This document shows, one piece after another, positions 50,448-51,121 of a stretch of DNA of 64,000 bases. A program made the position numbers and the translations under genes. Location of the stretch: NCBI RefSeq assembly GCF_056712565.1, contig NZ_CM160072.1. One strand, 5' to 3'. The notes below the pieces were generated by a model. That model did not search any database. It saw only the letters and a program-made list of their open reading frames with translations, and was not told where the DNA came from. The first letter of the stretch is position 1. The number at the start of each line of letters is the position of its first letter.

Positions 50448-50567
50448 TATTCCTTTAACACTTTTTCAAAAATAAAGAGGAGATGGCTGCAAACAAATTA
50501 AATGCTTGTAGTCAGGTCTGTTCAGTAATTTTCAGATGCAATGATTCAGTTTATTTCTTCCAGAAAA

Positions 50568-50583
50568 TGTGACGACTTTCACA
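50568..50583. promoter_or_regulatory. perfect CRP consensus site TGTGA-N6-TCACA upstream of the ADI operon
   Basis: TGTGACGACTTTCACA read directly, about 120-135 bp upstream of the arginine deiminase start. Confidence 0.5.
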
Positions 50584-51121
50584 CCAGTGATGATATTAAT
50601 AATCGCAGTTAATAATATTTGATGCGGTTCTGATAAATGATAAAGAAACAAAATACGATAATGCATTAATACGCAAATATACGCAGAGTTATTCTTCGTT
50701 GTTAATTGATTGTTTTATTTTTCAGGAAATGCCTTTAAGTATAAAGCATTGATATTTATGTATATTTTAATATTCATTGCATATCTATGCGAAAGAATAA
50801 GGTGATTATTTTTCACAGCACTATTTTCACGGGATAACTATGACAGCACGGGCATTAAAAGCTAAGAAAATGAACTGTGATCTGACTGAGAGTTTTCTTT
50901 TAACATATGCAATAACAAGATATTAGGACCAAAATACATAGCTAAGTTATAAGATTTATGCAGCAAAACTGCATACAAAATTACTCCTGCTTAACATCAG
51001 TACAACATCTCCAGCAATAAACATGCGCAAGGGCAAAACCTGATGATTTTTCTATGGTGAGAGGTGGCTTTTTTTCGTATAAGGAAAGAAGTGAAACATT
51101 GTTTTAATAAAGGAAGATATT

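Follow-up and report, generated by a model that had tools for sequence, protein, structure and literature searches.

At class II CRP-dependent promoters such as galP1 and melR, CRP binds near −41.5 or −42.5 over the −35 region, and the promoter combines a weak or non-consensus −10 element with no recognizable −35 element. The class III promoter of ansB uses FNR at −41.5 and CRP at −91.5 in Escherichia coli, and two CRP sites in Salmonella. Higher-order control regions built on ArgR, integration host factor (IHF) or PepA are known from carAB P1 and the cer/ArgR–PepA complex, and the Pseudomonas aeruginosa arcDABC operon is driven by ANR at −41.5, helped by an ArgR of the AraC type. Here we describe the intergenic gap upstream of arcA, the arginine deiminase (ADI) gene, in a 64,000-nucleotide stretch of E. 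coli DNA (NCBI RefSeq assembly GCF_056712565.1, contig NZ_CM160072.1; hereafter the window, in whose coordinates all positions are given). The locus is orthologous to the STM4467–STM4463 islet of Salmonella Typhimurium (regulator STM4463, or RosE), with the same gene order, CRP box, −10 element and far-end yjgK promoter; the Salmonella gap has the same length (675 bp) and its sequence is partly alignable, with the blocks conserved but the spacers not. The experiments on start sites and on the ArcA dependence of STM4463 were made in Salmonella, whereas the E. coli locus is known here from its sequence. We consider it likely that the gap is the cis-regulatory region of the ADI operon, comprising a CRP class II core promoter and approximately 450 bp of upstream modulating sites.

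The gap extends to position 51121 from either 50445 (RefSeq start of arcA) or 50448 (first ATG), and is thus 674–677 bp long. An initial annotation of this DNA had described it as an AT-rich interval, suggestive of dense regulation, without open reading frames (ORFs) of 60 or more amino acids, and its coordinates and composition are confirmed: G+C content is 31.0% across 50445–51121, compared with 51.5% for the window, and the longest ORF wholly within the gap has 44 amino acids (50532–50666, minus strand). Dense regulation is likewise supported, by conserved sequence blocks and a conserved CRP box. The ‘short palindromes’ that had been noted are real and are better named conserved protein-site-like blocks; a generic repeat finder reported two weak inverted repeats only. 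A generic promoter scanner, of a kind not meant for activator-dependent promoters, returned two weak matches only, neither of them at the promoter proposed below.

The core of the argument is the CRP box, TGTGACGACTTTCACA, at 50568–50583 (centre 50575.5). It matches the CRP core TGTGA-N6-TCACA at 10 of 10 positions, as the initial annotation had recognized, and is the sole perfect match in 64 kb. For comparison, 80 loci orthologous to arcA were taken from other species, and the 1 kb upstream of each was aligned; the box was counted over 79 of these loci. YGTGA-N6-TCACA is present in about 60 of the 79, at 107–160 nt (mostly 118–135 nt) upstream of the arcA ATG, and the loci that bear it come from Escherichia, Citrobacter, Salmonella (arizonae and diarizonae), Enterobacter, Kosakonia, Lelliottia, Buttiauxella, Cedecea, Serratia, Erwinia and others. 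Across these genera, the box keeps its position while the surrounding sequence diverges. The box is very probably functional.

The position of the box relative to a mapped transcription start points in the same direction. In late-stationary-phase S. Typhimurium SL1344, differential RNA sequencing (dRNA-seq) identified a primary start of STM4467 at 89 nt upstream of the coding sequence (PMC3963941, supplementary file 13), and the promoter 51-mer of that study, TGTGAATCTCATCACATTAACAACCCAAATAAAATTCAATCATTGCTCCCG (TGTGAATCTCATCACA...AATCATTGCTCCCG), ends in the G that is +1 (PMC3963941). This start places the centre of the box at −42.5 and AATCAT at the −10 position. The same hexamer occurs here at 50541–50546 (minus strand), and by homology E. 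coli arcA would start at a G at 50533 (minus strand), giving a 5′ leader of approximately 89 nt (50445–50533, minus strand) with a Shine–Dalgarno sequence, AAGGA, at 50451–50455. In 57 of 68 orthologues the best −10-like hexamer (TAnnAT type) starts 29–30 nt from the centre of the box. The site-to-start distance and the conserved box-to-−10 distance together constitute the geometry of class II CRP activation, and a start at ~50533, as the Salmonella homology suggests, puts the perfect box at the activating position. Transcription of arcA would then proceed on the minus strand from ~50533 at a sigma-70 promoter with a weak −10 element (AATCAT) and no good −35 element, and cyclic AMP (cAMP)–CRP bound to the perfect box at −42.5 would activate this promoter in the class II manner. 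Dependence on cAMP–CRP would bring the ADI operon under catabolite control; the earlier suggestion to this effect is now well supported, given the conserved position of the box and its distance of −42.5 from the mapped start of the Salmonella orthologue.

Conservation in the remainder of the gap is concentrated in short blocks distributed over approximately 450 bp upstream of the core promoter (ortholog alignment). Their sequences and conservation are observed directly; the protein named for each is a prediction. Closest to the promoter is a candidate second site of the CRP/FNR family, CAGAA-CCGC-ATCAA in arcA orientation (50619–50632), centred at −92.5 and 50 bp from the CRP box. Of 68 orthologues, 44 have the pattern (C/A)TGAY-N4-ATCAW at 49–50 bp upstream of the CRP centre, and in Rahnella, Erwinia, Cedecea and Serratia the site comes close to the FNR consensus (1–2 mismatches in the first three genera). 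The copy in this strain is degenerate: it is the best conserved candidate in the gap, and it has 3 mismatches to TTGAT-N4-ATCAA. ArgR and FNR inputs had both been proposed for the gap; an ArgR-type input is plausible on the basis of the conserved blocks and the Salmonella literature, and the case for FNR is weak in this strain. A CRP/FNR-type protein at −92.5 would modulate the core promoter.

Further upstream, four blocks resemble ArgR operators (ARG boxes; 18-bp palindromes with the consensus wnTGAATwwwwATTCAnw). Block N, the palindrome TGCGTATTAATGCA (50662–50675; centre −135.5), has 3 mismatches to the ARG core and a cross-species consensus, TGCGTAGTnATTCA, of high information content; block J, CGCATAGATATGCA (50778–50791), reads TGAATAATCATTCA in Cedecea. 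Both are conserved and match 10–11 of 14 core positions. Block H (ATAnTTATTT; 50831–50844) is degenerate here; its counterparts in Serratia and Erwinia come close to a perfect ARG box. Between them, blocks J and H give near-perfect ARG boxes in Cedecea, Serratia and Erwinia. Block E is an inverted repeat, GTATGCAG-TTTTG-CTGCATAA (50956–50976), with the consensus TTATGCA-N7-TGCATAA, and its N7 spacing is what the inner halves would show in a pair of ARG boxes with 3 bp between them, their centres being 21 bp apart. As a positive control, the ARG pattern detected the canonical argI operator at 52652–52686, which itself consists of two ARG boxes 21 bp apart, TGAATTAAAATTCA and TGGATGATTATTCA. In the proposed scheme, the ArgR-family boxes at about −135, −251, −304 and −422/−443 would sense arginine, presumably through the ArgR paralogue of the operon and/or ArgR itself. 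The regulator STM4463 reportedly controls expression of STM4467, to judge from the title of a 2012 paper by Choi et al.

Two further blocks are candidate sites for phosphorylated ArcA (ArcA-P), each a conserved direct repeat that matches the consensus: block L, TGTTAATTGATTGTTT (50700–50715, plus strand), and block D, TGTTGTACTGATGTTA (50992–51007, minus strand). Direct repeats of TGTTA 11 bp apart with 1 mismatch each are over-represented in the gap (2 observed, 0.12 expected; P about 0.012, gap shuffles). An ArcA motif has been predicted at the Salmonella counterpart of block L, GTTAATTATTTGTTT, which lies 271 nt upstream of STM4467 (PMC3848847), and expression of STM4463 is strongly ArcA-dependent, falling steeply in an anaerobic arcA mutant (PMC3075218). 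Through these two repeats the region would sense anaerobiosis, and we regard ArgR-type and ArcA-type inputs to arcA as plausible. Between the ArgR-type blocks lies a predicted IHF site, TATCAATGCTTTA (50742–50754, minus strand; about −215), which has 0 mismatches to WATCAANNNNTTR and the core of which is kept as TCAATnnnTTA in nearly all taxa; by bending the DNA, IHF bound there could bring the far sites closer to the promoter. The remaining blocks are G (50872–50891), with an invariant GATCACA (50872–50880) that can be read as a CRP-like half-site, TGTGATCTGACTGAGA, with 2 mismatches, and C, the highly conserved GCGCATGTTTAT (51017–51028).

The arrangement of these blocks is conserved as well as their sequence. 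We measured spacing in 34 taxa from approximately 20 genera. The distance from the CRP centre to each block is constant to about ±2 nt, out to approximately 450 bp. The distance from N to J is 115 bp in 23 taxa and 113–116 bp in 33 of 34, that from J to H is 53 bp in 31 of 34, and the spacer within the block E repeat is 7 bp in all 34. The sole larger indel, in Serratia sp. PL17 (locus L064), is an 11-bp deletion (one helical turn) between blocks N and K. The transcribed leader of the same loci varies in length by 18 nt over about 130. Within E. coli, the most divergent copy (from a soil isolate; 94.5% identity) has 37 differences in the gap, 8 of which fall within blocks and 4 of these at degenerate positions, and leaves the CRP box, the −10 element, the ARG-like blocks N, J and E and the ArcA-type repeats unchanged, with two changes in block H. 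A multi-protein DNA assembly under geometric constraint would be the most economical reading of the fixed spacing. A more specific proposal, which we offer tentatively and consider possible rather than probable, is that the ~450 bp form a single nucleoprotein assembly of fixed geometry, in which the ArgR paralogue on phased ARG-type boxes, IHF and ArcA-P would act in an enhancer-like manner on the sigma-70 promoter, with the conserved leader hairpin described below adding a post-transcriptional step. If true, such an assembly would explain the near-absence of indels since Escherichia, Serratia and Erwinia diverged. Separately, Salmonella enterica subsp. arizonae (locus L006, ~2200–2350) carries an extra G+C-rich insertion of ~140 bp (…GCCCTGGAAGGGCGAGGCCCAGGGATGGGCCGAG…) in the interval between the yjgK promoter and the arcA blocks; it looks REP- or MITE-like (repetitive extragenic palindrome; miniature inverted-repeat transposable element) and lies outside the rigidly spaced region.

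Several observations weigh against this interpretation of the gap. The left half-site of the box is CGTGA, rather than TGTGA, in about half of the orthologues. A literature search returned no result on CRP binding or crp dependence for the arcA promoter of E. coli or Salmonella, and for this reason the dependence on CRP is something that we infer, albeit strongly. The E. coli start at ~50533 is itself placed by homology. For blocks C and G we recognized no matching consensus. In block E the inner halves are conserved and the outer halves are not, and block E may thus be an operator at which some other dimeric protein binds; blocks N, J and H occur singly. Neither ARG-core matches with up to 3 mismatches (P = 0.22) nor FNR-like matches are enriched over shuffles of the gap, so that these assignments derive from conservation and resemblance to the consensus. 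Finally, AA/TT periodicity at 10–11 bp, a sign of DNA wrapping, was sought in the gap and gave no peak.

We weighed the functional reading of the box against two others. Perfect CRP cores do arise by chance in 64 kb of this composition (0.16 expected, and at least one in 14 of 100 shuffles of the window), and the box could in principle be a functionless match in AT-rich DNA; however, no perfect core turned up among 500 dinucleotide-shuffled versions of the gap, the position is kept across genera and the geometry relative to a mapped start is that of class II activation, and we give this idea next to no credence. The box might instead serve FNR or another regulator of the CRP/FNR family for anaerobic induction, in the way that ANR acts on arcDABC in P. 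aeruginosa and ArcR acts in Bacillus. ADI operons elsewhere are indeed driven by oxygen sensors of the Crp/Fnr family (reviewed in PMC4813224), and a class II FNR site would occupy the very position of the box. Yet every orthologue has half-sites of the CRP type (GTGA/TCAC) and none has those of the FNR type (TTGAT/ATCAA), the core agrees with CRP at all 10 positions, the Salmonella start was seen in ordinary culture in late stationary phase, and the separate site at −92.5 is more FNR-like than the box. Use of the box by FNR or a relative is therefore quite unlikely.

Two other explanations concern the gap as a whole. An unannotated gene for a small RNA (sRNA) or small protein, for which the initial annotation saw room, could account for both the length and the blocks: there are 553 bp between the two proposed starts, and indel-free spacing is also a property of genes. 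Searches for such a gene gave nothing to support it. An Rfam covariance-model search of the gap at E values up to 10 yielded three chance-level snoRNA matches only (E = 1.6–6), a terminator scan of the gap found no terminator-like site, and the late-stationary dRNA-seq tables for Salmonella list no further start or non-coding RNA candidate between the two mapped starts. A conserved small ORF was rejected, as the best E value (2 × 10−4) fell on blocks conserved as DNA and no match spanned a full ORF, and so was a structured RNA over the upstream 500 bp, for which RNAalifold returned an energy of 0 in all windows on both strands, except at the trivial CRP palindrome. With no conserved ORF, RNA structure, Rfam match, terminator or extra start, a gene does not account for the fixed spacing; with their palindromes, direct repeats and IHF consensus, the blocks instead resemble sites for proteins, and a hidden gene is very improbable. 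The other explanation is that the gap is mainly a nucleation and silencing platform for H-NS on a horizontally acquired islet, with the blocks secondary. The low G+C content (31%, against 51.5% for the window), the presence of the islet in just 11% of complete E. coli genomes and the use of the term ‘islet’ in the literature (PMC2328253) are in its favour, and it is compatible with the cis-regulatory reading rather than exclusive of it. However, silencing through AT-richness needs no base-specific blocks held at ±2-nt spacing across approximately 20 genera, and the gene order is that of Salmonella and Citrobacter, which makes the locus look ancestral and not recently imported. As the main explanation of the gap, H-NS silencing is unlikely.

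The transcribed leader has a conserved element of its own. A stem-loop with a 9-bp helix is predicted at +21 to +49 (50485–50513, minus strand); it is weak here (7 of 9 pairs; z = −1.5), and a stem-loop is present at −68 to −40 from the ATG in approximately 58 of 64 orthologues. The sequence changes from clade to clade: Salmonella and Citrobacter have the arms CTGCAAA/TTTGCAG, Enterobacter has CGCCATG/CATGGCG, Buttiauxella has GGTAATAG/CTATTACC and Serratia has GAAATAA/TTATTTC. The z score against shuffles is negative in all 20 clade representatives (mean about −2.7). In a MAFFT alignment of 25 leaders made from sequence alone, 86% of the cells of the 9-bp helix are paired, compared with 28–41% when one arm is slid, and 40 cells are compensatory, compared with 2–12 when slid, a value reached by none of 500 shuffles. 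RNAalifold detected nothing in a global MAFFT alignment of whole leaders because the hairpins were misaligned there, which a shorter alignment solved. The hairpin matched no Rfam family in a covariance-model search. A role in mRNA stability, in processing or as a site for an sRNA or Hfq is among the possibilities. We rejected an intrinsic terminator or attenuator, as the U-run does not abut the stem, several clades lack this run, and no leader peptide is encoded. Also rejected was an RNA thermometer or translational switch in which the conserved CCCUUUUUAUU would pair with AAAGGA and mask the Shine–Dalgarno sequence; this pairing gave no consensus structure (mean z = −0.36).

The initial annotation treated the gap as a divergent control region, and the idea of a region shared by two genes is not supported. 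At the far end lies a compact promoter (51078–51106, plus strand) for the adjoining gene of the YhcH/YjgK/YiaL family (‘tabA-like’; 51122–51574, plus strand), with a −10 element, TATAAG, at 51078–51083, a predicted start at ~51087 and a palindrome, TGAAACATTGTTTTA, at 51092–51106 (+6 to +20). The start is predicted by homology to the Salmonella orthologue, STM4468 (yjgK), which has a mapped start with a 34-nt leader (PMC3963941). The same −10 element and palindrome precede tabA in E. coli K-12, in a 144-bp bdcR–tabA gap without ADI genes. Conversely, Cedecea neteri has a co-directional argI upstream of arcA and no tabA, and its 649-bp gap still contains the blocks. The tabA-like promoter is thus confined to the last ~50 bp (~51072–51121) and the gap is barely shared by the two genes; the compactness of this promoter, kept in K-12, and the persistence of the blocks in Cedecea assign the ~500 bp from 50534 to ~51030 to arcA. 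As a description, ‘divergent shared control region’ is for the most part inaccurate. The palindrome TGAAAC-N3-GTTTTA at +6 to +20 of the tabA-like transcript is conserved across Enterobacteriaceae (the version at K-12 tabA is ATGAAACGTTGTTTTA; locus L082, 721–735) and looks like a putative repressor operator. A sigma-54 promoter for the tabA-like gene (TGGCAG-N5-TTTCT) was rejected by eye, as it lacks the −12 GC.

Profile searches identified arginine deiminase and the YhcH/YjgK/YiaL family beside the gap. In the ORF listing, arcA occupies 49224–50447 on the minus strand, with the first of two tandem ATGs as its start; RefSeq annotation of IHE3034, which is 100% identical, starts at the second (window position 50444). 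The tandem ATG ATG lies at 50447–50442, and in most orthologues only the in-frame second ATG is present, after nTn or GTn. The gene order in IHE3034 (RefSeq) is pyrL, an ArgR-family gene, yfcC, argF (catabolic ornithine carbamoyltransferase, cOTC), arcC and arcA (all minus strand), the gap, the YhcH/YjgK/YiaL gene (plus strand) and argI (minus strand). The ArgR-like product is a paralogue of ArgR, scoring 110.8 bits against an ArgR equivalog cut-off of 194. The 674-bp gap is 100% identical in the B2-type chromosomes of IHE3034, UM146, NU14 and APEC O18, and its sequence was found in 596 of 5,426 complete E. coli genomes (11%), chromosomal in every case.

The ADI operon, arcA–arcC–argF(cOTC)–yfcC with the ArgR-like regulator gene downstream, is carried on an islet of ~5.9 kb; the ADI system of Salmonella and uropathogenic E. 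coli has been described as an ‘approximately 5 kb islet’ (PMC2328253). Similarity to ADI-negative E. coli stops at ~45166–45207 on the left and resumes at ~51072 on the right. The tabA-like gene shares only ~75% DNA identity with K-12 tabA, and bdcR and yjgL, which flank K-12 tabA upstream and downstream, are both missing from the RefSeq annotation of the ADI locus; the variable segment therefore exceeds the five ADI genes. A perfect ARG box core, TGAATATATATTCA, occupies 45193–45206 at the left edge of the islet, within the last codons of the ArgR-like gene and ~95 bp upstream of pyrL, and in some ADI-negative E. coli the homology runs across it. Upstream of the ArgR-like gene, at 45700–45790 (minus strand), a terminator-like hairpin, AGGCCGCTTATCAAAGCGGCCT, follows yfcC and is in turn followed by an inverted TCACA-N8-TGTGA motif. 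In Salmonella, STM4463 has its own mapped start site in the matching region (PMC3963941, dRNA-seq).

The ADI operon yields ATP and ammonia from arginine in Salmonella and in B2-type E. coli, which include uropathogenic, avian-pathogenic and neonatal-meningitis strains and the probiotic Nissle 1917. In Nissle, ADI alters the environmental pH in culture, in a study that swapped the native control for a synthetic promoter. ADI reportedly contributes to Salmonella virulence, again according to the title of Choi et al. The promoter map suggests testable mutations, whether in the CRP box, in the leader hairpin or at the candidate sites for arginine, oxygen and IHF inputs, with which to study how ADI is switched on in the gut, bladder and macrophage. 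The near-invariant spacing over 450 bp also offers a clean natural example for the study of geometry-dependent promoter architecture.

Overall, the arcA promoter is of a known type, with class II CRP activation and upstream ArgR-family, ArcA and IHF inputs predicted from sequence, and represents fairly ordinary bacterial control that is orthologous to the partly studied STM4467 promoter of Salmonella. Only two of its elements are mildly surprising, namely the unusual rigidity of the architecture over 450 bp and the leader hairpin with its covariation. Compared with other class II CRP promoters, it has the same geometry, here conserved, with the centre of the box at −42.5 (taking the Salmonella start literally) rather than at the canonical −41.5 and with a predicted dependence on CRP. 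As at ansB, there is a pair of CRP/FNR-family-type sites, here at about −42.5 and −92.5 with a conserved distance of 49–50 bp, but the order would be reversed, with CRP proximal, and the distal candidate is degenerate here, with 3 mismatches to FNR. The region shares with carAB P1 and cer a set of several candidate ARG-type boxes and a predicted IHF site over hundreds of base pairs, held at near-indel-free spacing, and differs from them in having no AA/TT helical periodicity and in a regulator that is an ArgR paralogue below the equivalog cut-off. In relation to P. aeruginosa arcDABC, the proximal site in E. coli is of the CRP type, the ArgR belongs to a different family and the upstream region is much longer; nevertheless, both arrangements would set an ADI operon under a CRP/FNR-family activator in the class II location, assisted from upstream by a helper that responds to arginine.

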